64,000 nt of DNA, taken from the NCBI GenBank assembly GCA_963612025.1, contig CAVDUB010000001.1, positions 75,577 to 139,576 on the forward strand, written 5' to 3'. The notes beneath the pieces were generated by a model. It was given only the letters and a program-made list of their open reading frames with translations, was not told the DNA's origin and did no database searches. Below, one piece after another: positions 15,320 to 54,160 of this stretch. Positions within the stretch are counted from its first letter, which is position 1. Every line of letters starts with the position of its first letter. The position numbers and the translations under genes were made by a program. The DNA comes from a bacterium. GTDB taxonomy: Bacteria; Bacillota_I; Bacilli_A; RFN20; CAG-288.

Positions 15320-18289
15320 TCAAAGCTGGCATTTTGCCAGCTTTTTGTTTTTCCAGAGAAAACATGCAAAAAAGAACAAAGAAAGAAGAACAAAGAAGAC
15401 AATCATCGAAACAAAAAGAATGAACCAATAGGGTGTAATTCTGACAATTTTTGATGTCTTGGCAATTCCATTCATTGCACAGGAATTGACAATCTGATAT
15501 TCCCAGTTCTTTGCTGATTCAAGGAGGAGATTCAAAAGAGTCAAATCTTTTTCTTCCTTGATGTATTTTACGATTCTTTTTCCGGCAATGGCATTGCCAT
15601 CCAGGCAGAACTGATTCGTTCCACTCGACAGGATTTCCCTGACATGTCCTTTATATCCGCTTGTCGCGCCATAAGTGGCATCTGTTACGATATTGCCGAT
15701 AAATCCCCATTCTTCTCTCAAGAGAGATGTATTGAGGGCATACGAGGAAGAAGCAAAAGTCAGACCGATTCTCTCAAAACTCTGCATCATCCCATGACAT
15801 TTCCCTTCCTTGACAGCCCCTTCGAATGCACGCAAATCATTTTCCCGGAAAGCCTGTTCGTTGAAGAAGACGCTCACTCCTTCTCTTCCCGTCTCCTGGT
15901 CATTGCCAGCAAAATGCTTTGGTGCCGCATGGACGCCAAGTTTCTCCATAGCTTGAATTTCTTTTATACTGGCCAGATAGGTCATGTGACTATCTTCTGA
16001 CATATATTCGAAATTTCGTCCTCCGAATGGTGTGCGGTGAAGGTTGGGTCCAATACAGTAATTCTCAAAAGATTTCGTAAACAAAGATTCGTTTCCCATG
16101 AGATTTCCTCTTTTTTCATACAAGACTTCATTCCATGTCGATGTCAGAATGTTCTTGCATGGAAACGTCATCGTTTCCATCTTTGAGCCATCTTGATAAA
16201 AATAGATCCGGCCGAGTGAATCCATGCCATCCCCTGTGTTGACCTCTGGCTGTGAAAGGGAGGCAATGCTTGGGCATGTGAAAGATTCTGCTGTTGTCAA
16301 AGCGAGGTCATCGATGCTGGCCTGTTTGATAAACTGATTCCATAAGGGATCATCAAGAGGAATTCCCTTCATGGCAATCAAGGGAATATTTTCATTCTGT
16401 GAAACAGGCAGTTCGTCAAAAGAAGATTCCGAAAGATAGAATTCACCGCGAAGATGATCAATCATTTCATCATTGACGGAAATAGATGCTTGAGAAACGG
16501 GATAGGTATTCTGATAATCCTTTCTTGAGAGATACGGAAATTCCTTTTTGTCCTTGTAATGATGGATGTCGCAATCAGAGAAAAGGTTCGTCACCTTTTT
16601 TCCGTTACTTGTGGAAAATGTTTCTTTATCAAAATCCCATGAAAAAGAAATAACATTTCTTTTTTCACATGAATAAGGCTGTCCCTCTTCATCAAAAAGT
16701 CCGAGCTGATTCTGACTCGAAAGAATCTGATTGAGAGCATCATGACAATCTTTTCCGATGGAAAGAAAATAATCTCCCTGGGAAAGAATATAGGTCTTGG
16801 CATTATAAGCATCATAGCTTGTAAGGAAATAAGGATTGATCGAAATCGTAACGATTTCTTCCTCGTTTGGCAAAAGTTCTCTTGTCTTTTTAAACCCAAC
16901 AAGAACAATGGCGCTTTTCTCGATGTCATTTTCCTTTTCGTATTCCCCATAGGGAGTCGAGGCATAGACCTGAACGACATCCTTTCCTGAAACAGAGCCG
17001 ATATTTCGCACACGAACCTTCAGGGTGATTTCTTCTTTCGAAATATCCGAATCGATGATTTCCTGATCAAAAGTCGTATAGCTCAATCCATGTCCGAAAG
17101 GATAGGAAATCTCTTTTGCGTAGTTCCATTCCTGACCATCAAGAGATCCGACACTGCTCTTTGCAGAAAAGCGGTTGAGGATGCAATCCTCATACCTCGT
17201 TTCATAGTATTTGTATCCGATATAAATATTCTCCGCCTGAAAAGAAACAAGTTTTGCCTTTTCCTTGATGGTCAGATTCTTATCCATGGAAGAAATATTT
17301 TCGAAAAAAGGTGTCCTTGTTCCGGAATTGACAACCGCAGGCGAAGATAAGGAACTGACCGCATAGGTATCGACGAGTTTTCCGCTTGGATTTGCTTTTC
17401 CACAAAGAAGATCGGCAACGCCCTGAAAGCCTGTCAGGCCAGGCTGGCCGATTGCCAAGATGGCATCTGCATATTTTTTGATCTTCTCAATTTCCATCTG
17501 ATTCGAAGAATTCAAGAGCACAATCACCTTAGAGAATTTCTGTCTTGCAAAAGAAAGCAAAGATTCTTCATTCTGATGAAGTGCTAAAGAAGAAAGAACA
17601 CGGACTCCATCATCGTCCACATCATCCATCAATAAATCGACGCCTTCGGATCCGACACGGGATAAAGTGATGATACAGCAGTCCTTATATCCTTCGAAGG
17701 ATGACTCCAATTTCTGATAAAACGAAAGAGACTCCTCACTCAAGGAGGCTGAATAGCCTTGCATTGTGGAATTCGATGGTATCGGCAATGTTCTTCTTTT
17801 CGCACTTCCCTTTTTCAATGCCTGATAGGCTTCCTCGTTGATAAGAAAACCATCGGACTCCAGGGCTGTCTTTAAGTCGATGCGATAGGGTCTTTCTTCT
17901 GTCACATAGTTTCCAGCAGAACTCGCCTTATAGATAGGATCGACACTCGCATGGCCCAAGAGTGTAATCTTTTTTTCTTCTCTCAGAGGCAGAGCTTCGT
18001 TTTCATTATAGAGAAGAACAGCACCTTCCTTTTCCTCCTCGATTCCCTCTTGACGACAGATTCTTTCGAGTTCGTCAAAATTTTCATCCGAAAGTTGATG
18101 GTCGAGAATATCCGTTTCATAATAAAGATTCGAAGATACGTCTTCGTCATTGACCACTTTTGATGTACTGATATGAAGGAAATTATTGATGCTATCTTTA
18201 TTCTCATTGAAAATCAGGAATACGAAAAGAAGAAGAATGGAAACAGACAGAAATAAAGATGACAAAACAGCATATTTTTTATTTTTCAT
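15320..18289 (-). CDS. Glycoside hydrolase family 3, domain-permuted, with N-terminal signal-anchor and C-terminal TM anchor
   Basis: The alpha/beta-sandwich motifs come first (VLLYNENEALPL; YPFGHGLSYTTF), followed by an Fn3-like region. The (beta/alpha)8 motifs come last (PKHFAGNDQETGRE; REEWGFIGNIVTDA). The C-terminus is WFILFVSMIVFFVLLSLFFFACFLW-KNKKLAKCQL. Confidence 0.9.
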   Translation of the reverse strand: MKNKKYAVLSSLFLSVSILLLFVFLIFNENKDSINNFLHISTSKVVNDEDVSSNLYYETDILDHQLSDENFDELERICRQEGIEEEKEGAVLLYNENEALPLREEKKITLLGHASVDPIYKASSAGNYVTEERPYRIDLKTALESDGFLINEEAYQALKKGSAKRRTLPIPSNSTMQGYSASLSEESLSFYQKLESSFEGYKDCCIITLSRVGSEGVDLLMDDVDDDGVRVLSSLALHQNEESLLSFARQKFSKVIVLLNSSNQMEIEKIKKYADAILAIGQPGLTGFQGVADLLCGKANPSGKLVDTYAVSSLSSPAVVNSGTRTPFFENISSMDKNLTIKEKAKLVSFQAENIYIGYKYYETRYEDCILNRFSAKSSVGSLDGQEWNYAKEISYPFGHGLSYTTFDQEIIDSDISKEEITLKVRVRNIGSVSGKDVVQVYASTPYGEYEKENDIEKSAIVLVGFKKTRELLPNEEEIVTISINPYFLTSYDAYNAKTYILSQGDYFLSIGKDCHDALNQILSSQNQLGLFDEEGQPYSCEKRNVISFSWDFDKETFSTSNGKKVTNLFSDCDIHHYKDKKEFPYLSRKDYQNTYPVSQASISVNDEMIDHLRGEFYLSESSFDELPVSQNENIPLIAMKGIPLDDPLWNQFIKQASIDDLALTTAESFTCPSIASLSQPEVNTGDGMDSLGRIYFYQDGSKMETMTFPCKNILTSTWNEVLYEKRGNLMGNESLFTKSFENYCIGPNLHRTPFGGRNFEYMSEDSHMTYLASIKEIQAMEKLGVHAAPKHFAGNDQETGREGVSVFFNEQAFRENDLRAFEGAVKEGKCHGMMQSFERIGLTFASSSYALNTSLLREEWGFIGNIVTDATYGATSGYKGHVREILSSGTNQFCLDGNAIAGKRIVKYIKEEKDLTLLNLLLESAKNWEYQIVNSCAMNGIAKTSKIVRITPYWFILFVSMIVFFVLLSLFFFACFLWKNKKLAKCQL

Positions 18290-18747: not shown

Positions 18748-21678
18748 TTACTTTTCTTCTGCGACTTCGGCTTTTTCGTCCTTATACGCCTTGCGGATTG
18801 CAAAGAATCCCCAGACAATCAAGCCAACCGGAACAGCGATATCGACAATCATGAGAACGACTTTCCAATAGGCCATCGCATAATGATCGATTTCGACGCC
18901 GAGGATGTTCGAATTGCAGACAGCATAGAGTGTCTCATGCGTTGCATTTCTGAGCATCAGACAATCCGTTGCATTATTCGAATCGAAAACAGAACTGTCG
19001 GCTGTCTGTGAGCAGAGATCGAGCGTTCCACCAGCATACAAAGCCGGTTTGACCTGCATATAGTCACCTTTGTTGTGGTGTGTATTGAAATCCGTGATGA
19101 CAGCACCATGGAATCCCCATTCTTCTCTCAAAATCGTCGTCGTCAAGCTATAGGTCGCTCCAGACCAACGGGTTCCGATACGATTGAAAGAGGTCATGAT
19201 GCCACGGCTCTTGCCAACTTTGACAGTGATTTCAAATGGTCTGAGATAAAGTTCACGCAAAGCCTGTTCATTGACAAACGTGCAATCGCCATTGGCATCG
19301 CGGTGTGTTTCACCTTCATTGCCGACAAAATGCTTCAAGTATGTCGTCATACCCTTCTTGTTGGCACCCTTGACTTCATAGGCACCCATCATACCGGAAA
19401 GGAAAGGATCTTCAGAGAAATATTCACAGCATCTTCCGCCGAATGGATTGCGATGGAGGTTCATGGCAGGCGCATACCAACCAGTATAAGGAACACCACT
19501 CTGTCCGACTAGGCCTTCATTGCCGACCGATTCACCCAATTTCTCGAGAAGGTCGACATTCCATGTCGAAGCGGTGATAACTTCACAGCAATACATAACG
19601 GTATTGTTGATCGTCGGATCTCCCATAAAGGCCGTCAATCCAACCGGACCATCGGCATCGATGGTGGCTGGCTTGGTGATGGAATCCATCTTTTCCGTAT
19701 GGAAACCGGCATCAAGATACATCGTCAGCTGTTCATCATATGTGGTCTGATCAAGAAGTTTGTCCCATAACGGATCATCGAAATCCTTGCCCTGCAGATC
19801 AATAAGTTTCATGCCATTATCCGCACCATAGGTCGGCATTTCAGCCGTCTTGGTTCCATTGACATACGGGTTGGCATCGTCTAAGGAAGTGTTGTTGTTC
19901 TTCAAAAGGTCACGGAAGGCCGTATCGATGGTTCTTTCTTCCTGAGTTGATGGAGACGGGAAAGTTCCTTCCCAATCATTTCTCGAGAGCGTCGACTGAC
20001 AATTCGAATCGGATCCATCAAAATGATTTTCGACCTTCGTTCCTGTGACATTGTCATTTTCGAACTTCAGTCCATTTTCACAATTCATCGAAATCTTTCT
20101 GGATGAATCATGGGCTGTCGAAGCAACATACAAGGAATAAGCACCCTTATCGAGTTCATAGCCCTTGAAATCATTCTTGTTGGCATCATTGTAGTCATAG
20201 TTCGCAAGATAATACGGATCGATGCTAATGGTGAGTTCTTCAGACTTTCCAGGTTCAAGCAAGCCGGTCTTTGCAAAACCGACAAGAACCTTCGAGGATT
20301 TTTCGATGCCACCGGCATAATAGGTTCCGCCCATATAAATCTGAACGACATCCTTGCCAGCGACCTCAGAAGTATTGGTGACTTTCACCTTGACATCGAA
20401 TGGATCTTTCGTCAATTCTTTTCCGTTCAAAGTCCCTTCATTGGTGATGGTCCACTCAAATGTAGAATAGCTAAGACCATATCCGAACGGATAGAGAACA
20501 TTCTGAGTATACCAATTCTCATTGTTTTCTCCTCTGGTCTCATAATAGCGATAACCGATATAGACCCCCTCTTCATAGTTGGTGAAATAATAGAGGGAAT
20601 TTCTCAGCTTTCCACTCGCATTGATCAAGAAGGCATCGCCATTGTCGCCAACACCTTCACACTGCGAATTGTCGCCGAAGTTGTAATAGGAAGGAACCGA
20701 TTTGAAGTCCTTGACATAAGTGTCTGTGAGATGTCCAGAAGGATTCACGCTGCCATTGAGAATCTTTCCGACAGCCATGGTTCCCTGGGCTCCTGGGAAG
20801 CCAATCCATAAGATACCATCAATCTTATCGTTTTCCTCCAACGCGGTGCAGTTGAGTTGGTTGGCCGCATTGACCAAGACCACAACCTTCTTGAATCCTG
20901 CGGAAGTCACCATGTTGATCATGGCTTCTTCGTCCTTGTCAAGATCAAGGAACGTCTTGCTAGAATCGCCAGGCTGAGCTCTCGGAAGATCGAATCCTTC
21001 ACCGCCGATACGGGTCAGGAAGATAACCGCCATATCCGAATAGGAAGTGAACGTGGACTTCACCGAATCCGTATAATTCGCAAGCGGAGTCTCACCGACG
21101 TTCAATGTTGCTGAGCCTCCGGAATCCATGCCTGGATTGGAGGATCTTTCCGTTTTATCATTCTTATAGAATTCCTTCAAGGTCGGATTGATCTCATATC
21201 CGGCTTCCGTCAGAGAATCATAGATATTTTTTGTCTTACTATCTGTGGAGTTGCCAGCCGAACCGGATCCAGCAATTGCCATATTGATGGAATTGCGTCC
21301 GAAGACAGAAATCTTCTTCGTGGAGTCCGTCTTTGCCGGAAGAGCATTGTTCTTATTCTTCAAAAGAACCATGCCTTCTTCACAAAGCTCATTGTTAACC
21401 TTGTTTCCATGTTCCTGGGCACTCGTCTTATCACCGGCCTTGACATCCTCGTCGAGTTCGAAAGAAGTCGTAACCGTCGAACCGGATTTCGCAATGGCGC
21501 GATCGCCGCCGAAGAGTCGATCCAAAACACCACCTAACACCTGTCTGCTCAAGGCAAGAGGTGTCACAACAATCAGAAGAACAGCGACAATAGCTGTCAC
21601 GATAAACCAAACTCGGCTTCCGACATGATGGAAAATAACAGCAAAAGGATTACGTTTTTTTTGATTTTGATTATCCAT
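18748..21678 (-). CDS. Glycoside hydrolase family 3, domain-permuted, with N-terminal TM/signal and C-terminal TM anchor
   Basis: The start was moved to the ATG at 21678 behind AAAGGAGG; the track start at 21714 is TTG. Motifs are MVLLKNKNNALP, YPFGYGLSYSTF, KHFVGNEGETHR and REEWGFHGAVITDF. The C-terminal TM is VVLMIVDIAVPVGLIVWGFFAI followed by a basic tail. Confidence 0.9.
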   Translation of the reverse strand: MDNQNQKKRNPFAVIFHHVGSRVWFIVTAIVAVLLIVVTPLALSRQVLGGVLDRLFGGDRAIAKSGSTVTTSFELDEDVKAGDKTSAQEHGNKVNNELCEEGMVLLKNKNNALPAKTDSTKKISVFGRNSINMAIAGSGSAGNSTDSKTKNIYDSLTEAGYEINPTLKEFYKNDKTERSSNPGMDSGGSATLNVGETPLANYTDSVKSTFTSYSDMAVIFLTRIGGEGFDLPRAQPGDSSKTFLDLDKDEEAMINMVTSAGFKKVVVLVNAANQLNCTALEENDKIDGILWIGFPGAQGTMAVGKILNGSVNPSGHLTDTYVKDFKSVPSYYNFGDNSQCEGVGDNGDAFLINASGKLRNSLYYFTNYEEGVYIGYRYYETRGENNENWYTQNVLYPFGYGLSYSTFEWTITNEGTLNGKELTKDPFDVKVKVTNTSEVAGKDVVQIYMGGTYYAGGIEKSSKVLVGFAKTGLLEPGKSEELTISIDPYYLANYDYNDANKNDFKGYELDKGAYSLYVASTAHDSSRKISMNCENGLKFENDNVTGTKVENHFDGSDSNCQSTLSRNDWEGTFPSPSTQEERTIDTAFRDLLKNNNTSLDDANPYVNGTKTAEMPTYGADNGMKLIDLQGKDFDDPLWDKLLDQTTYDEQLTMYLDAGFHTEKMDSITKPATIDADGPVGLTAFMGDPTINNTVMYCCEVITASTWNVDLLEKLGESVGNEGLVGQSGVPYTGWYAPAMNLHRNPFGGRCCEYFSEDPFLSGMMGAYEVKGANKKGMTTYLKHFVGNEGETHRDANGDCTFVNEQALRELYLRPFEITVKVGKSRGIMTSFNRIGTRWSGATYSLTTTILREEWGFHGAVITDFNTHHNKGDYMQVKPALYAGGTLDLCSQTADSSVFDSNNATDCLMLRNATHETLYAVCNSNILGVEIDHYAMAYWKVVLMIVDIAVPVGLIVWGFFAIRKAYKDEKAEVAEEK

Positions 21679-21820
21679 ATTTCCTCCTTTATCCATCTCT
21701 TTTTCATTCCCCAATTGAAAAGAAGATGATTAAAAACATTGTATTGTAAACCCCTTACATTTTCATTTTTTTATCTTATATTTCTTTTTTTTGAGCGTAA
21801 GTTGTTACACCTTTTTTGCT

Positions 21821-22793: not shown

Positions 22794-25700
22794 TTACTTC
22801 TCTTCTCTCTTCTTCTTGAAGGCAAGGGCGACACCTAAGAGAGCCATAGCTCCTAAGGCAGAAGAGGCAGCGATGATGCTTCCGCCACATCCCTTGTTTT
22901 CAGTCTTGCTTTCAGCAGCCGTCTTGGCTTCATCAGCGGTCTTCTTGGCTTCATCGGCTGTTGTCTTGGCAGTATCAGCCGCGGTCTTTGCGGCATCGGC
23001 TGCCGTCTTTGCAGCATCAGCCGCAGCCTTTGCGGCATCAGCAGCGTCCTTAGCCTCATCAGCAGTGACAACGTGTTCTTCTGTTCCACCTTTGACGGTC
23101 AAGGTGATTTCCTGATCGTATTCACGGGTGACATCCGGATTTCTCCATCCACTTCCAGGAGTGAACTGGATGACATGGAGCTTAAAGACATAGGTTCCGT
23201 TCTTCGTGGCTTTTCCAGTAATCTTTCCATCCGCGGACAAAGTCAAGCCTTCTGGCAAGGTTCCTTCCGCATCCATATAGGTGACGGTCGTTGTTCCTTC
23301 CGCTTTGATATAGTCAGAAGAAATCTGTGCTTCGAAGTCTTCGCCAACGGTGATTTCAGTCTTATCAATCTTGAAGGCATCGATGACGTTCAAGGTATAG
23401 TTCTTGGTATGTGTGATCCATCCATCGGCATGCATCGTGACAGTGAAGGTGTAGCTTCCTTTGGCCGTGCTTGATCCAGTCAGGTTGCCCGCGCGATCAA
23501 GAGTGATGCCTTCTGGCAAGCTTCCGCCCGTCACTTCGTACCAGACATCGGTTGTGCCGACGCTTTCGCTTGCTCTCACAGATCCGTTGAAAGTTGTTCC
23601 AGCTGGAGCATTGAAGGTGGCTGTCTCAGCATCCCACTTGCTGAAGTTGAGACCATTTTGTGTGATGGAAGAATTGGCAGTGACATAGAGAAGGTTGATC
23701 ATGGACTTTCTGTAGTAATAGTAGACCGTCCATAAGTCTGTTCCATCCTGGACAGGGACTTTCTTGGTCGAATCCCAGGTTCCCAATCCGGAAGGCCTAC
23801 CACCAAAGCCAAGCAAAGTATCCATGCCGGCGACTCTGGCCATGAAGCCATTGGAATATGGGGAAGTTCCATAGTTGAAGGATCCGGCATCGGTTTCTGT
23901 GAAACCATTGAATCCCCATTCATCACGGAGCATATAGGTCATTTCAGCTGTATTGTTGTAGTTTGCAATATAGCCGATGGAGTTCATACCACCCATGACG
24001 GCTTTGCAGTCGCCGATTTCAACAGAGAGACGGAATGGCTTGAAGTAGATTTCTCTCATCGCCTGTTCAGAAACGAAGGCGTGGTTGCCGTTACGCTGTG
24101 TTTCGCAGTCATTGAGGGCCATATGCTTCATGAAGGCATAGCAGCCTTTTGCCTGTGCGGCCTTGATGGAATAGGCACCGATCATACCGCCCAAGAGACC
24201 GTCTTCAGAATAGTATTCGAAGTTACGTCCGCTGAAGGCTGAACGATGTGTATCCATGGCAGGACCATACCAGCCTGGACGGATACCCCATAAGGATTCT
24301 TCACCGATGAGCGTTCCGAATTTCTCAGCCAAATCGATGTTGAAGGTGGCAGCCAACGTGCAGGCGACAGGATAGTCGACTCTATAGATGGCGGAAGGAC
24401 CATCGACATCAGTTGTCTGTGGCTTATTGATAGAGCTGATGCCCGCATTGTGCCATCCGCAATCATCCAATGCCTTATAGAGTTCTTCCCAAGTCATCTT
24501 GTTGATGACTTTATTGTAGAGTTTCTTTCCTTCTTCAGTTGACGGATCAACACCGGCAAGAGAATAGAAGTCTTCAGTGACAGATGTATCACCCTGGGTG
24601 TAATCTGCACCGAATTCTGCCTTGACATCGGCTTCTGTCTTCTTCATGCTGCTTGGCATGTAGCCGTTGATATCGTCATTTCCTTCCATCTTGACGCCTG
24701 TGACAATGCCAGACATAATGGCCAAGGCATCACCTTTGACTGTGCTTTCGGCATCGCCTTTGGCTTTTGGCTTATTGATATTAGCTAAATCTTTTCCAGA
24801 AGCTCTGGAGAGCTGTTCGACAACAAGGCCATCGCCGTCCATTGGCAAAGAACGATAGGGGTTCTTAATTGTGGTATCAGTGGTATTATTCTCAGCAATG
24901 TAATCGCTGAAGAGGTTGTGGACTTCATTGTTGGTATAACCATCGGTGGTGAGTGTGATTCCAGATTCAAGACTCCAAGTCACCGTTTCGAAATAGTTAT
25001 GGGAATCATCGGCAATCTTGAAAGCATAGTTGCCTTTGTCCAATTCATAACCCTTGAAGCCATTGTGATTTGCATCATTGTAGTCATAGGAGGCAACATC
25101 GGTATCTTTCCAGCTCAAAGTGAGAACCTGCTCTTCATTCGGCTGGAGGATTTCCGTCTTGGCAAAAGCGACTAAGACCGCAGAGGGCTTTTCAATCTCG
25201 CCATCGATATATGGAGCTTCGACATAGATCTGAACCGTCTTCTTTCCAGCGACCGAACCGACATTCTTGACTTTCACCGTCATCGACATGTCATGTGTTG
25301 TCGAATTATAGGTGACATCCGTCTGTTTAGAAACATCGAATTCAGTGAAACTCAAGCCATAGCCGAATGGATAGACGACATTTTCCTTATACCAATTCTT
25401 GGCCGTATCACTTGCTTCACCGCCCTTGATGGTGAACATAGTTTCATAATACTTATAGCCAAGGTAGACACCTTCTTCATAATTGGTATAGGCAGCGATA
25501 TTGGCAACTTCTGTTGTCGAATAATTACCCGTCCTATCTTTGCTATACCAAACGTCTTTGTATTTCGATTCAAAGTTTTCATCCGTCTTATCAGGGGTGA
25601 GGAAATAGTTTTCAGCATTTCCTTCCTGATTCTGTGCGTTCGTACCGAAATTGAGGGAAGTTGGATCCTTAAGAAGATCGCGAGGATAGACATCGACCGT

Positions 25701-26594
25701 TTTGCCGGATGGATTGACTTTTCCGGTCAAAATGTCGCCGATAGCATAGAAGCCTGTTCCGCCAACACCGCCAGTCCATAACATGGCATCGATTTCATCA
25801 TCATCCTGAAGATCACCAAGTTCCATGACGTTTGTCGCATTGAGAATAACGACAATCTTGCTGAATTTCTTGGAATCCTTGATCATCTTGATCATATCTT
25901 TCTCATTTTCAGAGAGTTCAAGATAATGATGATCAATCTTCTTTCCATCTGCATCAACCGGGTCATCACCGGTATGATCAACAACGCCTGTCACTGGTTC
26001 ATCCGCACCTTCAGAACCCGAACGGACGATCGTGATGATGGCAGCATCATTGTAGGTATTCCATGTTTCCTTCACAGAATCTTCATAGCTCGAAACCGGT
26101 GTTTCACCGACTGTGAAACCGCCAGAGGAGAACATACCGCCGGATGTTCTTGCTTTGCCGGAACGGGTATCATCTTCATAGAATGCCTTCTGCGCCGGGT
26201 TGACATTGAATCCTGCTTCTTCCAACGTATCATAGATACCGGCAGAAGGATAATATCCTTTTGAAGCACCGGAACCGCCACCGCCGATCGAAGTGGCCGT
26301 GGAGTTCTTGCCAAAGACCGTGACATTATGCACGTTCGTAAACGGAAGAACATTGTCTTTGTTCTTCAGCATGATGATGCCTTCACCGGCAATTTCTCTT
26401 GTAAGCTTGTTTCCAGCCTCGCCAACATCTTCCATCGAAGCATAGGCAGAATAGAATTTCTTGCCTGTCGACGCTGTATTGGCTCCTTTCAATCCAGTTT
26501 TTCCTGTAACAGACGTACCAAGTTCACCGGATAACAGTCCAAATCCCATCAATGCAGCAACAGCGAAGAACGCCTTCTTTTTGGTTTTTTTCAT
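22794..26594 (-). CDS. Large surface GH3 glycosidase (permuted) with two He_PIG/Ig-like repeats, an Ala-rich heptad stalk and a C-terminal TM anchor
   Basis: The signal peptide is MKKTKKKAFFAVAALMGFGLLSG. GH3 motifs are IIMLKNKDNVLP, YPFGYGLSFTEF, MKHMALNDCETQR and RDEWGFNGFTETDA. The repeats are VTGGSLPEGITLDRAGNLTGSS and EGTLPEGLTLSADGKITGKA. The C-terminus is GCGGSIIAASSALGAMALLGVALAF-KKKREEK. A strong AAGGAGG RBS is present. Confidence 0.92.
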   Translation of the reverse strand: MKKTKKKAFFAVAALMGFGLLSGELGTSVTGKTGLKGANTASTGKKFYSAYASMEDVGEAGNKLTREIAGEGIIMLKNKDNVLPFTNVHNVTVFGKNSTATSIGGGGSGASKGYYPSAGIYDTLEEAGFNVNPAQKAFYEDDTRSGKARTSGGMFSSGGFTVGETPVSSYEDSVKETWNTYNDAAIITIVRSGSEGADEPVTGVVDHTGDDPVDADGKKIDHHYLELSENEKDMIKMIKDSKKFSKIVVILNATNVMELGDLQDDDEIDAMLWTGGVGGTGFYAIGDILTGKVNPSGKTVDVYPRDLLKDPTSLNFGTNAQNQEGNAENYFLTPDKTDENFESKYKDVWYSKDRTGNYSTTEVANIAAYTNYEEGVYLGYKYYETMFTIKGGEASDTAKNWYKENVVYPFGYGLSFTEFDVSKQTDVTYNSTTHDMSMTVKVKNVGSVAGKKTVQIYVEAPYIDGEIEKPSAVLVAFAKTEILQPNEEQVLTLSWKDTDVASYDYNDANHNGFKGYELDKGNYAFKIADDSHNYFETVTWSLESGITLTTDGYTNNEVHNLFSDYIAENNTTDTTIKNPYRSLPMDGDGLVVEQLSRASGKDLANINKPKAKGDAESTVKGDALAIMSGIVTGVKMEGNDDINGYMPSSMKKTEADVKAEFGADYTQGDTSVTEDFYSLAGVDPSTEEGKKLYNKVINKMTWEELYKALDDCGWHNAGISSINKPQTTDVDGPSAIYRVDYPVACTLAATFNIDLAEKFGTLIGEESLWGIRPGWYGPAMDTHRSAFSGRNFEYYSEDGLLGGMIGAYSIKAAQAKGCYAFMKHMALNDCETQRNGNHAFVSEQAMREIYFKPFRLSVEIGDCKAVMGGMNSIGYIANYNNTAEMTYMLRDEWGFNGFTETDAGSFNYGTSPYSNGFMARVAGMDTLLGFGGRPSGLGTWDSTKKVPVQDGTDLWTVYYYYRKSMINLLYVTANSSITQNGLNFSKWDAETATFNAPAGTTFNGSVRASESVGTTDVWYEVTGGSLPEGITLDRAGNLTGSSTAKGSYTFTVTMHADGWITHTKNYTLNVIDAFKIDKTEITVGEDFEAQISSDYIKAEGTTTVTYMDAEGTLPEGLTLSADGKITGKATKNGTYVFKLHVIQFTPGSGWRNPDVTREYDQEITLTVKGGTEEHVVTADEAKDAADAAKAAADAAKTAADAAKTAADTAKTTADEAKKTADEAKTAAESKTENKGCGGSIIAASSALGAMALLGVALAFKKKREEK
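22917..23063 (-). repeat. Seven imperfect 21-nt (heptad) tandem repeats encoding ADxAKxA
   Basis: The protein reads ADEAKDA ADAAKAA ADAAKTA ADAAKTA ADTAKTT ADEAKKT ADEAKTA. The DNA periodicity is visible in 22917-23063. Confidence 0.85.
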
Positions 26595-26671
26595 ATGTTA
26601 CCTCCTTAGAATAAAACCATGGAACGACCATTATTGGGGACTAACAGTGTGTTCCTTTCATCGACAAGTGC

Positions 26672-26700
26672 ATTCTAGGAAAAAGAATTTTGTAAATCAA
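26672..26700 (-). promoter_or_regulatory. Candidate promoter of the large GH3 gene
   Basis: On the minus strand the pattern is TTGATT-17 nt-TAGAAT, about 75 nt upstream of the ATG at 26594. Confidence 0.5.
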
Positions 26701-26714
26701 TGTAACCGCTTAAC
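26701..26714. promoter_or_regulatory. cre-like half-good site abutting the -35
   Basis: TGTAACCGCTTAAC has two mismatches at one end relative to TGWAANCGNTNWCA. Confidence 0.3.
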
Positions 26715-26757
26715 CTCTTCTTTTGGCTTCGTAAGTTGTCGTATTTTTTTTCGCACG

Positions 26758-26771
26758 TGTAAGCGGATACA
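26758..26771. promoter_or_regulatory. cre-like (CcpA) site
   Basis: TGTAAGCGGATACA fits the degenerate cre consensus TGNAANCGNWNNCW. Confidence 0.45.
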
Positions 26772-26946
26772 CTCCGAAAGACAGACGTTTTTCACCGTAA
26801 CAATTGACAGATTCAAGTGTTTGTATAATTCTTTTCTTTCGATTTGTGATGAAAACGAATCTTTGCAAGCAGAATTTTTTAACGACAAAAAAAGCCCTTT
26901 TATCTGCAATAAAAAAGATATCTTTCGATATCCTTTATTCCATAAT

Positions 26947-27669
26947 TTAGGACTCATGGACCTTTAAATATTTTGTCAGAGCATCCTGGAATTCTTTCTT
27001 CTTCGGATGAGAAATCATCAATTCATCTTCTCCAACATAGACTGTATATTTGTTGATGCCGGAGACATAACTGAGATTGACGAGGTAGCAGTGATTGCAG
27101 CGGACAAAGATAGAGGGAAGGACTTTCTCGATTTCGGAAAGTGAACCATATGTATCGTAGATGCCCTTGGTTGTATGATAGAAAAGTCGATGATTGATGA
27201 TTTCGACATATTTGATTTCGTAACTATTCAGAATCCGGCTGCCATTCTCATTGTTGATCATGATTTTCCGATATTTTTCCTGCTCTTTCTTCATAAAAAT
27301 AAAGACACGGGGCAATTTCTGAAGGAGATAGGATCGGTCAATTGGCTTTAGCAGAAAATCAACCGCATTCATTTCATATCCTTTGATGGCCAGTCTTTCG
27401 TTATCTGAAGTAAAAATGAGAAAGACATTGTCGTCAAAAGCCTTCAATTTCCTGGCAACATCAAAACTATCCATATCTTCCAATGATGTATCAAGAAAGA
27501 CAAAATCGAAGATATGGGAGAGATTTTTCAAAAATAAATGTCCTTGCTCATATTGCTGGATTTCAATTTTAAAATGGTTTTCAGAAGAAAAACCATTCAG
27601 AATATCCACTAGAGTTTCGTTCGTGGATATATCCTTTCCGACAATAGCCACTTTCATTCTTTCGATCAT
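26947..27669 (-). CDS. Orphan LytTR-family response regulator with an atypical receiver
   Basis: The receiver has FVFLDTSL (acceptor Asp), FTS and LLKPI, but the beta1 loop reads IVGKD instead of an acidic pair. A LytTR C-terminal domain is present and there is no adjacent kinase. The start could be 27669 or 27657 (MKVAIVG). Confidence 0.85.
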   Translation of the reverse strand: MIERMKVAIVGKDISTNETLVDILNGFSSENHFKIEIQQYEQGHLFLKNLSHIFDFVFLDTSLEDMDSFDVARKLKAFDDNVFLIFTSDNERLAIKGYEMNAVDFLLKPIDRSYLLQKLPRVFIFMKKEQEKYRKIMINNENGSRILNSYEIKYVEIINHRLFYHTTKGIYDTYGSLSEIEKVLPSIFVRCNHCYLVNLSYVSGINKYTVYVGEDELMISHPKKKEFQDALTKYLKVHES

Positions 27670-27727
27670 CCTCCAAAAGTCGGATTCTGCCTTCCATGGG
27701 AAGACGTCATCCGATATTTTCTTGGAA

Positions 27728-27757
27728 ATTTTACCCCCCCCCGTGTCTCCTTGTCAA
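27728..27757 (-). promoter_or_regulatory. Candidate promoter of the orphan LytTR gene with a G9 tract in the spacer
   Basis: On the minus strand the pattern is TTGACA (27757-27752), an 18-nt spacer (AGGAGACAC + 9 G), then TAAAAT (27733-27728). Confidence 0.55.
27734..27742. repeat. Homopolymer C9 (G9 on the minus strand)
   Basis: It is read directly from the sequence. It is the only G/C run of 8 or more that I noticed in the window. Confidence 0.95.
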
Positions 27758-27805
27758 GATTGCCGTTTTGTCCATCTTTCATCTCATCCGTCCGATTTCG
27801 TTCGG

Positions 27806-27834
27806 TGGACAAAAAAGCCGTTTTGCATTATACT
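27806..27834 (+). promoter_or_regulatory. Candidate nadE promoter
   Basis: The pattern is TGGACA-17 nt-TATACT, about 27 nt upstream of the ATG at 27861. Confidence 0.5.
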
Positions 27835-27860
27835 TTTCAAAAAAAGAAAGAAGAAGAATC

Positions 27861-29807
27861 ATGTCCCTTAATCTATTGAAGGCAACCTGCCTGATTCCCA
27901 AACTCAAAATAGCCGATATTCATTTCAATACAGAGAGCATCAAAAAACTCTATCTCGAAAAGAAGGACTCGGCAATTCTTTTGACTCCCGAACTCTCGTT
28001 GATCGGATACACTGCTCAGGATCTCTTTTTCCAGAAGGCATTCTTAGTAGAAATCGAAAAGGCATTAGTCCAACTAAAAGACATAACGGCATATAACGAA
28101 AACCTCTTAGTCGTCGGTGCCCCTCTTCTTTTTCAGAATCGTCTCTATAATTGTGCCGTCTATCTTTCGAATGGAAAAATCATCGGCATCGTTCCCAAGT
28201 CTTTTATTCCGAATTATGGTGAATTCTATGAAGCGAGATGGTTTGCATCCGGAAAAGAAATCACCGGGCAGACGCTGATGATTCAAGGAGAGAAAGTTCC
28301 CTTTGGTGTCGACATTCTATTGCAGGATGAAAATTCTTCTGCCGTCATCGCATCTGAAATCTGTGAGGATCTCTGGGTGGGTGATAAGCCATCGACCAAA
28401 GCCTGTCTAAACGGGGCCAATATTGTTCTCAATCTCTCGGCAAGTGATGAAAATGTTGCCAAGAGAAAATACCGGAAAGATCTTGTCAAGATGCAGTCGT
28501 CCACGCTTTATTGTTCCTATCTTTATTGCTCAAGCAGTTTTGATGAATCCTCGCAGGATCTTGTCTTCTCCGGACACAATCTGATTGTCGATAACGGAAG
28601 CGTCCTGAATGAAGTTTTCTTCCCCGAGAGTCCTTCTTCCATCACCGGAATTCTCGATATCGACAAATCAACCTATAACAGAATGCACCAGTCCACATTC
28701 GAAAACAGAAATGATTCCTATCGAATCATTCCTGTCAAACTGAAGAAATTCCTTAATGAGGAGCTGTCCATCGAAGAAAAAGTCGAAATGCTGAGAAAAG
28801 AATGCTACCCCATTGCTCGAAATCCTTTCGTGCCAGACGAAAAGGAGAAGAGAAAAGAAAGATGTCTTGAGATCCTTTCGATTCAGGCTCATGGCTTGGC
28901 CACGAGGGTGAAAAATACCAAGATTCATAATCTTGTCATCGGCATATCCGGTGGGTTGGATTCCACCTTGGCCCTTCTTGTCTGCAGCCAGGCCAAAGAA
29001 ATCGTTCCGGAGATAAATATCATCGGCATCACGATGCCAAGCGAAGGAATGACAAGCAATCTGACAAAGAACAATGCCGTCGACCTCATGAAGGAACTCG
29101 ATGTGGAAATCCGCGAGATTCCGATTCGCAAGACCGTCGAAGAGCATCTAAAAGATATCCATCATCCTCTTTCCTATGAAGGAGAAAAGGATGTCACCTA
29201 TGAGAATGCCCAGGCAAGAATGAGAACCTATATCCTCATGGATATTGCCAATATGGAAAAAGGAATGGTTGTCGGAACAGGAGATTTGAGCGAACTCGCC
29301 CTTGGTTGGTGCACATACAATGGAGATCATATGTCCATGTATGCCGTCAACAGTTCGATTCCGAAAACCCTCGTGAAATACATTGTCGAAGCTTATAGTG
29401 ACACCTTAGCCGATGAGAAATTAAGCAAGACTCTGAAAAGTATCATCGACACACCGATTTCTCCCGAACTGACGCCGAACAAGGATGGACAGATTGCACA
29501 GAAAACCGAAGAAAGAATTGGAAAATATGATCTCAACGACTTCTTCCTCTTCTATTTCCTTCGTTACGGATTCTCCCCTGAGAAGATCTTAACCCTTGCT
29601 CTTCTTGCCTATCCAGAAGAGACGAAAGAGCATATCAAAAAAAGTCTCGAAAACTTCTATCGTCGATTCTTCAGTCAGCATTTCAAGAGAAGCTGTCTTC
29701 CAGACGGTCCGAAAGTTGGAAGCGTCACTCTCTCGCCAAGAGGAGACTATCGAATGTCTTCGGATAGTTCGCCGGACACCCTTCTTGACGAACTTAATAA
29801 ACTATAA
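27861..29807 (+). CDS. nadE: Glutamine-dependent NAD+ synthetase (CN-hydrolase + NAD synthetase domains)
   Basis: The start was moved to the ATG at 27861 (MSLNLLKATCLIPKLKIAD). The nitrilase-like N-terminal half contains EICEDLW, and the PP-loop motif is GISGGLDSTLALLV. Confidence 0.92.
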   Translation: MSLNLLKATCLIPKLKIADIHFNTESIKKLYLEKKDSAILLTPELSLIGYTAQDLFFQKAFLVEIEKALVQLKDITAYNENLLVVGAPLLFQNRLYNCAVYLSNGKIIGIVPKSFIPNYGEFYEARWFASGKEITGQTLMIQGEKVPFGVDILLQDENSSAVIASEICEDLWVGDKPSTKACLNGANIVLNLSASDENVAKRKYRKDLVKMQSSTLYCSYLYCSSSFDESSQDLVFSGHNLIVDNGSVLNEVFFPESPSSITGILDIDKSTYNRMHQSTFENRNDSYRIIPVKLKKFLNEELSIEEKVEMLRKECYPIARNPFVPDEKEKRKERCLEILSIQAHGLATRVKNTKIHNLVIGISGGLDSTLALLVCSQAKEIVPEINIIGITMPSEGMTSNLTKNNAVDLMKELDVEIREIPIRKTVEEHLKDIHHPLSYEGEKDVTYENAQARMRTYILMDIANMEKGMVVGTGDLSELALGWCTYNGDHMSMYAVNSSIPKTLVKYIVEAYSDTLADEKLSKTLKSIIDTPISPELTPNKDGQIAQKTEERIGKYDLNDFFLFYFLRYGFSPEKILTLALLAYPEETKEHIKKSLENFYRRFFSQHFKRSCLPDGPKVGSVTLSPRGDYRMSSDSSPDTLLDELNKL

Positions 29808-31801: not shown

Positions 31802-31876
31802 CGCGGGGTGGAGCAGTGGTAGCTCGCCAGGCTCATAACCTGGAGGTCATCGGTTCGAATCCTTTCCCCGCTACCA
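31802..31876 (+). tRNA. tRNA-Met (CAT), initiator-like acceptor and D arm, CCA encoded
   Basis: The fold is CGCGGGG-TG-GAGC-AGTGGTA-GCTC-G-CCAGG-CTCATAA-CCTGG-AGGTC-ATCGG-TTCGAAT-CCTTT-CCCCGCT-A-CCA. Position 1:72 is a C:U mismatch. The T stem has two mismatches. Confidence 0.8.
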
Positions 31877-32180: not shown

Positions 32181-33314
32181 ATGCTGAAAAGTTATTCGAT
32201 TGAACATTACCGTGCGATTGAAAAAACAAAAATCGACCTCAGAAAAAGTAAAATCGATTATCGCAACAATTACGTCTTGGATGGAGAAACCATCAATCCA
32301 GCTGTATTCTATGGAAATAACGGTATAGGAAAATCGCTTGCCCTGAATCCATTTGGAATTCTAACCTTTCTTTTGAATTATGAACCAAGTACTCTTCCAA
32401 ATCATCTTTTAGCTTTTCCTGATGTCTTGGAACTTCAAGAGGGAACTCCAATCACTGAATTTCCGACATTTATTTTTGATTTTGTTCTCGACGGCATTCC
32501 TTTTACCTATGAAATTTCCTTGCTCGGGAAAAAAATCATAGCAGAGAAACTAATCACAAAGAATCTTCTTCTTTTTTCCAGAAAGAAGAATACATATCTT
32601 CTTGATAAGCAAGAGAATACGGTTTCGGAATATTATCCCGCACTTCGAAAAATCGGCATTGAGGAATATGGTTCTGAGCATGAACATCGTCAGCTCATAA
32701 AGAAAATCTACGACTATCTTTCTTCCATCATATATATCGATTCCCAAGGCAATGTCTTCGGAAGGGAATTCCGTGAAGCAGGTGTTTTTGATACCATTCA
32801 ATCGATGGGAAAGTCCTTTGAAGAACATCTCAACAAGATTCTTTCGATACCGAACATCACTTTCTCAACGAAAGTCAATGAGAAGACACACGAACAAGAA
32901 CACTATTTCACCTTCATCGATGCAAAAAAGGATTTGCATGCCGGTTTTGCCAGTGAAGGCATGATGCAGACATTGCGTCTTGTTCTTGTCTTGGAATCCG
33001 GTCTAAAAACAAAAAACAGGCTCGTTGTCGTGGATGAACTAGATCGTTCTTTGCATCCGATTGCATTAAAAAAGACAATCGATGAATTCGTCGAAAAAGG
33101 CGTTCAACTAATTTTTTCCTGCCATGATACCAATCTCATGCGCTATCTTAGACCAGATCAGGTCTATTTCTCCTATTTCGGTGAAAATCTACATACAACG
33201 TTTCATCGTCTCAACGATATCTATCCGCGTCTCAGAGAAATCAATTCGATCGAGACAATGTATCTGAAAGGCGTCTTTGACGAGAAAATGGTCAATGCTG
33301 CAAACAAAAACTAA
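32181..33314 (+). CDS. Stand-alone ABC/SMC-like ATPase (AAA_21/AAA_15 type), no partner gene
   Basis: Walker A is YGNNGIGKS, the signature-like motif is FASEGMMQT, Walker B is RLVVVDELDRSLHP and the H-loop is SCHDTNLM. The gene is visibly more AT-rich than its neighbours. Confidence 0.75.
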   Translation: MLKSYSIEHYRAIEKTKIDLRKSKIDYRNNYVLDGETINPAVFYGNNGIGKSLALNPFGILTFLLNYEPSTLPNHLLAFPDVLELQEGTPITEFPTFIFDFVLDGIPFTYEISLLGKKIIAEKLITKNLLLFSRKKNTYLLDKQENTVSEYYPALRKIGIEEYGSEHEHRQLIKKIYDYLSSIIYIDSQGNVFGREFREAGVFDTIQSMGKSFEEHLNKILSIPNITFSTKVNEKTHEQEHYFTFIDAKKDLHAGFASEGMMQTLRLVLVLESGLKTKNRLVVVDELDRSLHPIALKKTIDEFVEKGVQLIFSCHDTNLMRYLRPDQVYFSYFGENLHTTFHRLNDIYPRLREINSIETMYLKGVFDEKMVNAANKN

Positions 33315-53300: not shown

Positions 53301-54160
53301 CCAACAGCCTGATGCATTCTTTCTTTGGCGCCTTTATCTGCCTTGACCGGATTCTTTTCAAGAGCCTTGAGAAGGAAGCTGTTCTCGCCAAAAAGGCCTA
53401 ACACACCCGTGACTTCTCCAGAAGGAGTGCCATCAGCATTGTTCGGCAGTTCAGTATCATTCAGTTGATCGGAATCGGAAACAATTCCCAGAGCACGGAG
53501 GAGGACAAGGGCCGGGACTTTTTTCTGTTTGTCGATACGGACGGAGACAAAATCACGATTATCCGTCAAATATTCCAACCAGATACCTCTGGCAGGGATG
53601 ATGTTGGAACCATAGACGATGTTGATTTCATTCTTAGCATCGGTATCGGTTTTCTTCAAGGTGACTTCATCCATTTCCTTGGAGACATAAGCACCCGGAG
53701 AACGGACAAGCTGAGAAGCGATGCATTTCTCAGATCCATTGATGATGAATGTGCCAGATGGAGTGATCCAAGGGAAATCGCCCATGAAGATTTTTTCTTC
53801 GACGATCGTTCCATCCGGATGTTTCAGACGAAGCGTGACATGAAGTGGAGCTGAATAGGTCAACGCGGAGACTTTACACTCAAAATACCCGTGTTTCTCA
53901 TCCGCAGAACCCCACTGGGCATTCACGTAATCCAATTCAGCAATTTCTTCTGCATCGGTTTCGCGGCCGCGGGTATCTTTGTTGGAGAAAATCGGGAAAA
54001 TATCTCTGAAAACTTCATCGACGCCAGTTTCAGTGAACCATTTGAACGATTCCGTCTGAACAGCACAAAGATTGGGAAGCGGAACCGTGGAGAAAGTCTT
54101 ACTGAGATCCAAACGGCCTGTTTCCGTCTTCTGATATTTATTAATGTCAAATCTTTCCAT
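50360..54160 (-). CDS. rpoB: DNA-directed RNA polymerase subunit beta
   Basis: The 1266-aa ORF contains conserved blocks (GRHGNKGV, FGEMEVWALEAYGAA). Confidence 0.99.
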   Translation of the reverse strand: MERFDINKYQKTETGRLDLSKTFSTVPLPNLCAVQTESFKWFTETGVDEVFRDIFPIFSNKDTRGRETDAEEIAELDYVNAQWGSADEKHGYFECKVSALTYSAPLHVTLRLKHPDGTIVEEKIFMGDFPWITPSGTFIINGSEKCIASQLVRSPGAYVSKEMDEVTLKKTDTDAKNEINIVYGSNIIPARGIWLEYLTDNRDFVSVRIDKQKKVPALVLLRALGIVSDSDQLNDTELPNNADGTPSGEVTGVLGLFGENSFLLKALEKNPVKADKGAKERMHQAVGYIFRKLRPGEPYTAESAAMTLKQRFFENEHYDLGKAGRFKINEKLGIYDRLINQTLAEDLISNEGEIVFEEGKVLSIDDVAKLKKEKFFDGNENHSIHLHANPDLDTNDVVNRVKVVSPLDPEKTVYIIGTDLRLNLTHVTTSDIIASLSYMLNLIDGIGYTDDTDHLGNKRVRCVGELIQDKFRAGLSKMKRTIHDRMSTSDLSNMSISSLINIKALTSAVIQFFNSDSLSQFMDQTNPLAELTNKRRLSALGRGGLTRDRASSAVRDVHPTHYGRICPIETPEGQNIGLISNLACYAKVNEYGFLQTPYRPVKNRIIDNDKDHVLWLTADQERNHTICQANVNVDKETDRILDDVVNARLNGEYVTTKAEDCDLIDASPKQIVSIAAACIPFLENDDGKRALMGSNMQRQALPLLRPEAPFVGTGLERKIAHDSGEALLAEKPGYIDYVDSKQIVINQDDGTKKIYKLRSFVRSNKRTCISQTPIVEVGEHVSESQIIANGPSMDKGELALGQNAVVAFTTWHGYNYEDAVVISEKCVNDDLFTNLIIEEYPIDRRKTKLGDEEFTRNVPNLGEDKKTYLDEKGIVVPGTEVKEGDILVGKTTPKGESTETNNDHLLKSIFSSKSDEDKDTSLRVPHGGEGIVLDVKTFSRDKGDELLSPDVLESVKVYVVQKRKIQVGDKMSGRHGNKGVISKVLPVEDMPYLPDGTPVDILLSPMGVPSRMNIGQVLEVQLGLACKKLGIKVSTPVFDGASNEEIEGFMHEAGIDPDGKTVLYDGQTGERFDARIAVGVMYMIKLDHMVEDKIHARAIGPYSLVTQQPLGGKAQNGGQRFGEMEVWALEAYGAAYTLQEMLTIKSDDMVGRNKTYESILKGEQVSKPNMPESTRVLIKELQGLGIDVNLLDERNQPINMDTISEEAERDSRRSHHDMVNFDTKHDDERDMEEARNAHLEEEVSAEFMDDQNMESEEASFEKEDNE

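Follow-up and report, generated by a model that had tools for sequence, protein, structure and literature searches.

What function could a run of nine consecutive G residues serve in the promoter of a regulatory gene, in DNA that otherwise holds no G or C run longer than five? This question is raised by a 64,000-nucleotide (nt) window of contig CAVDUB010000001.1 (assembly GCA_963612025.1), in which a G9 tract lies between the -35 and -10 hexamers of the predicted promoter of a gene encoding an orphan, atypical response regulator of the LytTR family, upstream of three GH3 glycosidase genes. The organism is taken to be an uncultured Bacilli-type member of the Bacillota, and an animal gut origin is likely, since its more remote relatives were recovered from deer and from rumen. 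Promoter switches based on repeats have been described almost exclusively in pathogens (such as Neisseria, Haemophilus, Treponema and Mycoplasma), where they nearly always act directly on surface-protein genes. That a spacer homopolymer can modulate transcription is textbook knowledge; what is unusual at this locus is that the target is a regulator without a kinase, that the host is a commensal of the Bacilli type, and that mutation has apparently replaced sensing.

Here, we describe a comparative analysis of this tract, of the promoter in which it lies, and of the genes that the regulator may control. On balance, we favor the view that the tract is a selectively kept, slippage-prone repeat in the spacer of a near-consensus housekeeping promoter of the sigma-70/sigma-A type, which would dose the LytTR regulator and thereby act as a "volume control" on a glycosidase regulon.

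Results

The G tract occupies the spacer of a predicted regulator promoter

A protein search with the window regulator returned relatives approximately 100, 95, 90, 81 and 70% identical to it, designated lineages A, B, C, D and E, of which the four that bear the tract (A-D) are species-level. Coordinates are positions in the window, and the regulator promoter is read on the minus strand. The initial annotation had read TTGACA, an 18-nt spacer composed of AGGAGACAC plus G9, and TAAAAT at this place, and inspection of the minus-strand sequence at 27757-27728 bears it out, with TTGACA at 27757-27752, the spacer at 27751-27734 and TAAAAT at 27733-27728. The promoter and the gene comprise the following elements.

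27752..27757, minus strand: -35 hexamer TTGACA of the regulator promoter; 6/6 identity across all 22 related assemblies, including the 70% lineage
27743..27751, minus strand: non-repeat half of the spacer, AGGAGACAC; A[AG][GA]AGACAC-like in lineages A, C and D, AAACAATAC in lineage B
27734..27742, minus strand: G9 homopolymer (C9 on the plus strand), the length-variable element; G7, G8, G9 or G10 at the equivalent place in relatives
27728..27733, minus strand: -10 hexamer TAAAAT; unchanged in lineages A-D, TAGAAT in lineage E
27658..27727, minus strand: predicted 5' untranslated region (UTR), drawn from a presumed transcription start, with ribosome-binding site GGAGG (27674-27670); GGAGG is invariant in the intergenic alignment
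26947..27657, minus strand: gene encoding the orphan atypical LytTR-family response regulator, 236 amino acids; PF04397 and PF00072 matches

A consensus scan of 26500-28300 ranked TTGACA-18-TAAAAT as the best site, with 11/12 matches. The same interval contained 5 promoter-like sites, against 4.9 expected from shuffled sequences, and therefore the consensus match alone is no proof of a promoter. The main evidence is a phylogenetic footprint. Both hexamers are identical at 6/6 positions in every comparison among lineages A-D, and at 6/6 (-35) and 5/6 (-10) positions in comparison with lineage E; the ribosome-binding site aside, they are the sole intergenic blocks invariant from A to E. Identity between the -35 boxes of the divergent regulator and nadE promoters is 26/50 (52%) for A versus C and 7/48 (15%) for A versus D, and that of the regulator 5' UTR is 46/73 (63%) and 34/74 (46%) for the same two pairs. 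The conservation of the hexamers amid such poorly conserved flanks supports the view that TTGACA-18-TAAAAT acts as the working promoter of the regulator, from a predicted transcription start. The consensus scan found no second minus-strand promoter-like site between nadE and the regulator. Additionally, approximately 40 nt upstream of the regulator -35 hexamer are deleted in lineage D, and thus no conserved upstream activator site appears to be required.

The regulator probably starts at ATG 27657 (MKVAIV...) rather than at 27669, in agreement with the 236-residue gene calls of its relatives, and this ATG lies 12 nt past GGAGG. The promoter had been placed 50-60 nt upstream of the start codons by the initial annotation, an underestimate, since the -10 hexamer ends 71 nt before the probable start.

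Other roles for this DNA were considered and set aside. A riboswitch or leader RNA containing the tract was rejected for lack of any Rfam match in 26500-27950, even at E values up to 1; three tRNAs are the only matches in the whole window. The consensus fold of the regulator 5' UTR has no covariation support (-0.05 kcal/mol). A G-quadruplex was likewise rejected, as a lone G run cannot form one. Autoregulation through repeats 5' of the regulator's own promoter was rejected, the DNA in question being unconserved and, in lineage D, deleted.

Tract length varies among related lineages

The order nadE, regulator, GH3 is kept wherever a contig includes the upstream flank; the contigs of lineage E, and two of those of lineage B, stop or diverge short of nadE. 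The spacers of the related loci are composed as follows.

Lineage A (window, L001): AG[G/A]AGACAC + G9, spacer 18 nt
Lineage B (L002, L003, L087, L088): AAACAATAC + G8, spacer 17 nt
Lineage B (L086): AAACAATAC + G9, spacer 18 nt
Lineage C (L004-L008, two haplotypes): AAGAGACACA + G7, spacer 17 nt
Lineage D (L009, L054, L080-L083, four haplotypes): AAAAGACAC + G10, spacer 19 nt
Lineage D (L084, L085, two different runs): AAAAGACAC + G9, spacer 18 nt
Lineage E (L010, L011): no tract, TTGACA-17-TAGAAT, spacer 17 nt

Thirteen distinct tract haplotypes were distinguished (G7, n = 2; G8, n = 3; G9, n = 4; G10, n = 4), all uninterrupted and at the same position, and G7, G8, G9 and G10 give spacers of 17, 17, 18 and 19 nt, respectively. 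Lineages B and D are each polymorphic in tract length on near-identical flanks. The 17-nt and 19-nt spacers that the initial annotation had predicted for the loss or gain of one G thus both occur among relatives, and the tract length, which it had proposed to compare across related genomes, is not invariant (7, 8, 9 and 10).

The closest comparisons come from lineage B. L086 (G9) and L088 (G8) differ by 2 substitutions in 1495 nt, with the tract as the only indel; L086 and L087 differ by 3 substitutions, the tract and a poly-A run, and L087 and L088 by the poly-A run alone. Between strains this close, nothing in the locus changes faster than the length of its homopolymers. Intergenic length differences among L080-L083, which might be taken for tract variation, are caused by 2-nt UTR indels instead.

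The G run appears to be selectively retained

At four-fold degenerate sites of the regulator and nadE, lineages A, C and D differ from one another at 43-50% of positions (Jukes-Cantor distances of 0.55-0.87), A differs from B at 17-20%, and A from E at 67%. By our own arithmetic, a neutral 7-base block would stay identical in a given pair approximately 2% of the time at 43-50% divergence, and lineages A-D all retain an unbroken run of at least 7 G. Because the run is kept at such neutral-site divergence with lengths of 7-10, it appears to be selectively retained while its length is free to change. The remainder of the spacer seems to be under no strict constraint, since lineage B has AAACAATAC in place of the non-repeat half. 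Two other homopolymers of the locus, A8 at 26751-26744 and T7 at 27845-27839, vary among near-identical strains and are interrupted or shortened in other lineages. A conserved G-run identity with an unconserved length is, as judged from these alignments, the signature expected of a selected variable repeat.

The rarity of such runs points in the same direction. The initial annotation had noted the tract as the only G/C homopolymer of 8 or more in 64 kb, an understatement, for G9 is the sole G/C run of at least 6 in the window. Runs of lengths 3 to 9 number 561, 69, 7, 0, 0, 0 and 1. Under a first-order Markov model, evaluated analytically, 10.8 runs of at least 6 are expected and 1 is observed (Poisson P for at most 1, 2.4e-4), and 38 runs of length 5 are expected and 7 observed; the counts of A/T runs fit the Markov expectation. 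Extrapolating the ten-fold fall per extra base, we calculate approximately 7e-4 length-9 G/C runs per window. These numbers suggest a genome-wide selection or mutation bias against G/C runs, and in each related locus the G tract is again the sole G/C run of at least 6.

Sequence comparison provides evidence for a tract that is polymorphic and kept by selection, and stops short of proving phase variation at high frequency. Since several haplotypes of one lineage share a single consensus length, the case for volume control is stronger than that for on/off phase variation. Such stability does not exclude switching, since at Treponema pallidum tprL most molecules carry G9 while lengths of 7-11 coexist within an isolate (PMC7864442).

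The regulator has no adjacent kinase and an altered receiver

The LytTR DNA-binding domain of the regulator (PF04397, E = 2.3e-16, residues 146-231) is readily recognized. The receiver (PF00072 Response_reg, 1.6e-10) is matched only from profile position 20 and is not canonical: the phospho-acceptor Asp is present in the window protein, and the acidic pocket is not intact, the clade of the window having IVGKD, with GK in place of the acidic pair ED, where relatives at 40-53% identity have IVEDD. A Lys at the second acidic position, as in CheY D13K, renders CheY active independently of phosphorylation. In the lineage D regulator (P0006 / L009), the phospho-acceptor Asp is itself replaced by Glu (VFIETS versus VFLDTS); this lineage also carries the longest tract (G10, 19-nt spacer).

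No histidine kinase was found within approximately 12 kb of the regulator, the only HATPase match being HtpG. Five relatives at 41-46% identity (L055, L057, L058, L061 and L060) encode a GHKL kinase of approximately 435 residues (PF14501) directly after the regulator. In L057 the order is regulator, kinase and then GH3, and in L056 GH3 follows the regulator directly; the link between regulator and GH3 therefore appears to be old, as both share this neighborhood. By comparison with these relatives, the clade of the window has lost both the kinase and the receiver pocket. The earlier description of an orphan regulator of a glycosidase locus thus holds, given the lack of a kinase in the surrounding 12 kb, the three downstream GH3 genes, and the regulator-kinase-GH3 order of distant relatives.

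One kinase-bearing relative has a G-rich spacer of its own. In L060 (2900-3000), a Clostridia metagenome-assembled genome (MAG) encoding a 42% identical LytTR regulator and a kinase, the promoter reads TTGACA-AACCT-G8-A-GGGG-TATACT with an 18-nt spacer, and looks like an independent G tract on a promoter of the same regulator family.

A candidate operator lies upstream of GH3 genes

Downstream of the regulator, the following features were annotated.

26908..26942, minus strand: intrinsic-terminator-like hairpin AAAGGAUAUC-GAAA-GAUAUCUUUUUU, directly past the regulator gene
26701..26766, minus strand: candidate operator 5' of GH3-1, with CCGCTTACA at 26766-26758, A8 at 26751-26744, CAACTTACG at 26738-26730 and GTTAAGCGGTTACA at 26714-26701
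26672..26700, minus strand: GH3-1 promoter candidate TTGATT-17-TAGAAT, from the consensus scan and conserved in the alignment; GTTAAGCGGTTACA abuts its -35 hexamer
22794..26594, minus strand: GH3-1, 1266 amino acids, GH3, with N-terminal signal-like sequence, Ig-like domains and C-terminal hydrophobic anchor
21749..21804, minus strand: second copy of the operator boxes, upstream of GH3-2, with CAACTTACG at 21804-21796 and TAAGGGGTT at 21757-21749
18748..21714, minus strand: GH3-2, 988 amino acids, probable second target of the regulator
15320..18289, minus strand: GH3-3, 989 amino acids, third paralogue on the same strand

The hairpin (-12.2 kcal/mol, z = -3.95, with 0/200 shuffles folding as well) is followed by a U6 run and was missed by the consensus scan because its stem is AT-rich; with hairpin and U6 in place, the regulator gene looks monocistronic. 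Across all lineages, hardly any change is seen in the approximately 190 nt upstream of GH3-1. The window contains two copies of CAACTTACG (0.11 expected), one 5' of GH3-1 and one 5' of GH3-2, and three of TAAGSGGTT (0.38 expected; 0/100 shuffles reach 3), two of these coinciding with the places of CAACTTACG. In L057, GTTAAGGGGTTACA lies 23 nt from TAGAAT upstream of its GH3 gene, the distance found in the window, and close variants of the operator element lie upstream of GH3 in L056 and L010. The candidate operator contains GTTAAG, which we take to be the core of AgrA sites. From the association of the boxes with GH3 genes and from this core, we infer that the regulator binds the candidate operator upstream of GH3 genes. 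The boxes were not found directly upstream of GH3-3.

Other features of this region deserve mention. The domain order is permuted in all three GH3 paralogues, the Pfam "C-terminal" GH3 domain coming before its "N-terminal" counterpart; in GH3-1, He_PIG Ig-like domains are present as well, together with an Ala/Lys-rich stalk that bears the C-terminal hydrophobic anchor. The A8 run between two of the operator boxes (26744-26751) is A6, A7 or A8 among near-identical lineage A and B strains, which alters the spacing of the boxes, and is interrupted in lineages C-E; this is probably neutral slippage, though in regulatory DNA. Finally, the GH3-1 leader (26595-26671, approximately 70 nt) hardly varies, even in the 70% lineage, and includes an inverted repeat, GGAAC...GTTCC; this leader has no Rfam match and could be a leader/attenuator element or a protein-binding site.

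Discussion

A model for the control of the regulator by the tract

The favored reading can be set out as a chain of conditional steps. Slippage would add or remove a G and shift the separation of the -35 and -10 hexamers among 17, 18 and 19 nt; spacer length would set the strength of the promoter and hence the amount of the LytTR regulator. The activity of the regulator is probably set by its amount and not by phosphorylation, because the partner kinase and the acidic pocket of the receiver have been lost. The regulator, in turn, would act on an operator (CTTAC-type boxes plus GTTAAGCGGTTACA abutting the -35 hexamer) of at least two surface-anchored GH3 genes, so that its amount would govern the expression of at least two surface-anchored GH3 glycosidases, and the tract would work as a "volume control", both heritable and reversible, over a small regulon of glycosidases. 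Ranked on general promoter knowledge and on the porA and tp0126 precedents (PMC2791445; PMC7864442), the 17-nt promoters of lineages B and C would be strong, the window promoter (18 nt) intermediate, and the 19-nt promoters that make up most of lineage D weak. With the tract placed on a regulator, a single tract could tune several glycosidase genes.

Several observations weigh against this reading. G10 is constant over four lineage D haplotypes that are 1.5-2.8% apart, and G7 and G9 are each constant in two; consensus turnover exceeds the per-site substitution rate only by a factor of tens to hundreds, which is slower than in classic contingency loci. L086, one of two within-lineage variants, comes from a contig with 3.3x coverage, and the apparent reversal (G9 inside a G8 lineage) rests on that contig. 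Spacers of 17-19 nt may all function, and the effect could be modest. A/T runs vary too, and therefore indels in homopolymers are a general feature of these genomes. The same promoter, the same kinase-less regulator and GH3 all occur in lineage E without a tract. One rival explanation is a tolerated mutational hotspot with no switching role, a historical accident kept pure by slippage, its lengths slowly fixed between lineages and 17-19 nt being good enough. Such a hotspot accords with a consensus length that is stable in most haplotype groups, with A/T runs of the locus that likewise vary between close strains, with the ability of lineage E to do without a tract, and with the break at the 5' end of the lineage C run (A then G7), to all appearances the onset of decay. 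It accords poorly, however, with the strong avoidance of G/C runs (none of length 6-8, with 10.8 of at least 6 expected), to which the exception falls exactly in a promoter spacer; with the fact that four lineages at 43-50% neutral divergence retain the G run but not the runs of A and T; and with the restriction of spacers to 17-19 nt, which suggests a functional bound on length. We regard the hotspot as unlikely, if deserving of serious consideration.

The G-rich spacer might alternatively be selected for itself, either as the operator of a DNA-binding protein or as a rigid G:C block that tunes melting or twist, its length changes being incidental. Lineages A, C and D also share the AGACAC of the non-repeat half, and effects of promoter poly-G tracts other than spacing are discussed for tprL (PMC7864442). 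Yet lineage B has altered 4/9 of the non-repeat spacer bases and kept the G run, lineage E has swapped the whole spacer and kept the promoter, and a fixed binding site, for which there is no candidate protein, would not be expected to accept lengths of 7-10; this explanation is accordingly improbable. That the real promoter lies elsewhere, leaving the tract as upstream or untranscribed DNA, is compatible with the unenriched consensus matches (5 versus 4.9) and with a presumed rather than mapped start, but is very hard to square with hexamers that are, besides the ribosome-binding site, the only intergenic blocks invariant from A to E and with the failure of the scan to find another minus-strand site. 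Finally, the run or its length differences could be artefacts of sequencing or assembly, such as two-color Illumina poly-G or homopolymer miscounts, as all data are short-read metagenome assemblies and L086 has 3.3x coverage. Within its long contigs, however, the run is bordered on either side by unique sequence, and NCBI MAGs, ENA and Logan assemblies from at least three separate run series agree on the tract length haplotype by haplotype (five times for G7, six times for G10, and in two separate runs for G9), which makes an artefact scarcely credible.

A broader form of the volume-control reading may be entertained, although we consider it only a tentative possibility. A two-component system would have been turned into a mutational bet-hedging device, with kinase and pocket gone and a hypermutable poly-G spacer in control, generating subpopulations with differing levels of surface GH3. 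The coincidence of the tract with the loss of the sensor kinase suggests that stochastic control replaced sensing. If true, a commensal member of the Bacillota would possess a kind of "phasevarion" that works through a transcription factor and serves carbohydrate foraging. Promoter-repeat loci such as this one can be found and tested purely by the comparison of metagenome assemblies.

Relation to known systems

The nearest parallels are the poly-G tracts of Neisseria meningitidis porA, fetA and opc, unstable homopolymers between the -35 and -10 hexamers of sigma-70-type promoters that modulate the level of expression (PMC2791445; PMC7864442). Those tracts act on single outer-membrane protein genes of a Gram-negative pathogen and their switching has been measured, whereas the gene described here encodes a transcription regulator of an uncultured Bacilli-type commensal. 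The Treponema pallidum tp0126 and tpr promoters have poly-G of similar length at the same place; tp0126 expression is best with a 17-nt spacer, and tract lengths vary among and within isolates, with one modal length dominant (PMC7864442, citing Giacani 2015 and 2007). The target of tp0126, an OmpW-like surface protein of a spirochaete pathogen, is no regulator and has no downstream regulon. In Haemophilus influenzae, hifA and hifB have TA repeats in a combined divergent promoter (van Ham 1993, as summarized in PMC11868660 and PMC2791445), again a repeat within a promoter spacer of a divergent intergenic region. The hif repeat is a dinucleotide common to two overlapping promoters, whereas here the nadE promoter is separate and without the tract. 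The vlp genes of Mycoplasma hyorhinis, an organism related to the Bacillota, encode surface lipoproteins and carry a promoter-spacer homopolymer as well; that tract is poly-A and acts directly on the lipoprotein genes, and the present one is poly-G. Phase variation in mycoplasmas has been reviewed (PMC10502178).

Simple repeats on regulatory genes, by which one tract reaches several downstream genes, are also known. Campylobacter jejuni flgS and flgR are repeat-controlled regulators. Further examples are the poly-C of Bordetella pertussis bvgS (Stibitz 1989, as cited in PMC11868660) and the poly-G of Klebsiella pneumoniae rmpA (bioRxiv 10.1101/2025.09.12.675794). All of these tracts lie in coding sequence and act on/off by frameshift, whereas graded levels would be expected of a promoter tract. 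With the LytTR systems of the AgrA/AgrC type, the locus shares LytTR and receiver domains, and its distant relatives an adjacent AgrC-type GHKL kinase; unlike them, it has no kinase, GK for ED, a Glu acceptor in one lineage, and no autoregulatory repeats at its own promoter. The initial annotation knew of no spacer tract for a LytTR regulator controlling a glycosidase locus, and a literature search found no report of one on a LytTR regulator. A Streptococcus gallolyticus paper on LytTR and phase variation (PMC8545106) was discarded as a precedent because it concerns an unrelated pilus switch.

A scan of species-representative genomes for the exact pattern with the window's own spacer returned nothing, and exact look-up of the window regulator (with both start codons) and of P0001 found no record. 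A general pattern scan of a metagenome contig collection returned 41 loci, 0 of them homologous to the window locus. Among these contigs, three unrelated homologous sets (L014, L033, L034, L036, L045 and L050, with G8-G10; L012, L022 and L041, with G7-G9; L032 and L043, with G9-G10) share the TTGACA / poly-G / -10 layout with differing G counts. Products encoded downstream in these sets include a trimeric-autotransporter-like adhesin, with the signal region MNRVYRVIWS..., as well as a lipoprotein; in L012 the layout is followed by the gene of a small membrane protein, whereas L022 and L041 have the same upstream flank and a different 50-amino-acid open reading frame (ORF). In the single contigs L018, L047 and L027, what follows is a gene for a prepilin-like protein, for a lipoprotein and for a secreted protease, respectively. 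Polymorphic poly-G spacers thus appear common in uncultured bacteria, in a sample that is biased, as the pattern itself was the search target.

The nadE side of the intergenic region and other features of the window

The gene nadE (27861-29807, plus strand) diverges from the regulator and has its own promoter candidate.

27806..27834, plus strand: nadE promoter candidate TGGACA-17-TATACT, from the consensus scan; excludes the tract

Its presence at this position agrees with the earlier claim that the nadE promoter is separate from the tract. Lineages A, C and D conserve the candidate, as do three of the four B haplotypes (L086-L088); it is absent from L002/L003, where the upstream flank has diverged, and from lineage E; in lineage D it lies only approximately 11 nt from the regulator -35 hexamer. 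The T7 run noted above (minus strand, 27839-27845) falls in the nadE 5' UTR; it is T5 in the near-identical L001 and is not kept elsewhere. The first 100 nt of L002 and 80 nt of L003, two assemblies of one sample, depart from the nadE promoter region of L086/L087 and the contigs end there, as L088 likewise ends at the nadE 5' end; the L002/L003 junction may be a strain-variable junction or a rearrangement beside the promoter.

The window RpoB (50360-54160) aligns over its full length with PDB chains 8x6f and 6wvj (1277 and 1254 bits), which we take to be Staphylococcus aureus and Bacillus subtilis RpoB, and only piecewise with chains that are presumably actinobacterial and proteobacterial. A 2.86-Mb contig labelled Treponema rectale (P0140, QOS39184.1) encodes an RpoB 85% identical to that of the window and close to those of "Bacilli bacterium" MAGs. 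No other Treponema name occurs among the best 120 RpoB matches, and the label conflicts with the sequence; Treponema rectale was rejected as the taxonomy of the window organism. Several MAGs of the H076xx series that bear the locus also carry implausible labels, for example Bacteroides uniformis and Prevotellaceae. Elsewhere in the window, a tRNA gene (31802-31873) is followed by an ORF encoding an AAA_21 / AbiEii-like ATPase (32181-33314), and the segment 31802-33314 may be a small defence or toxin-antitoxin insertion.

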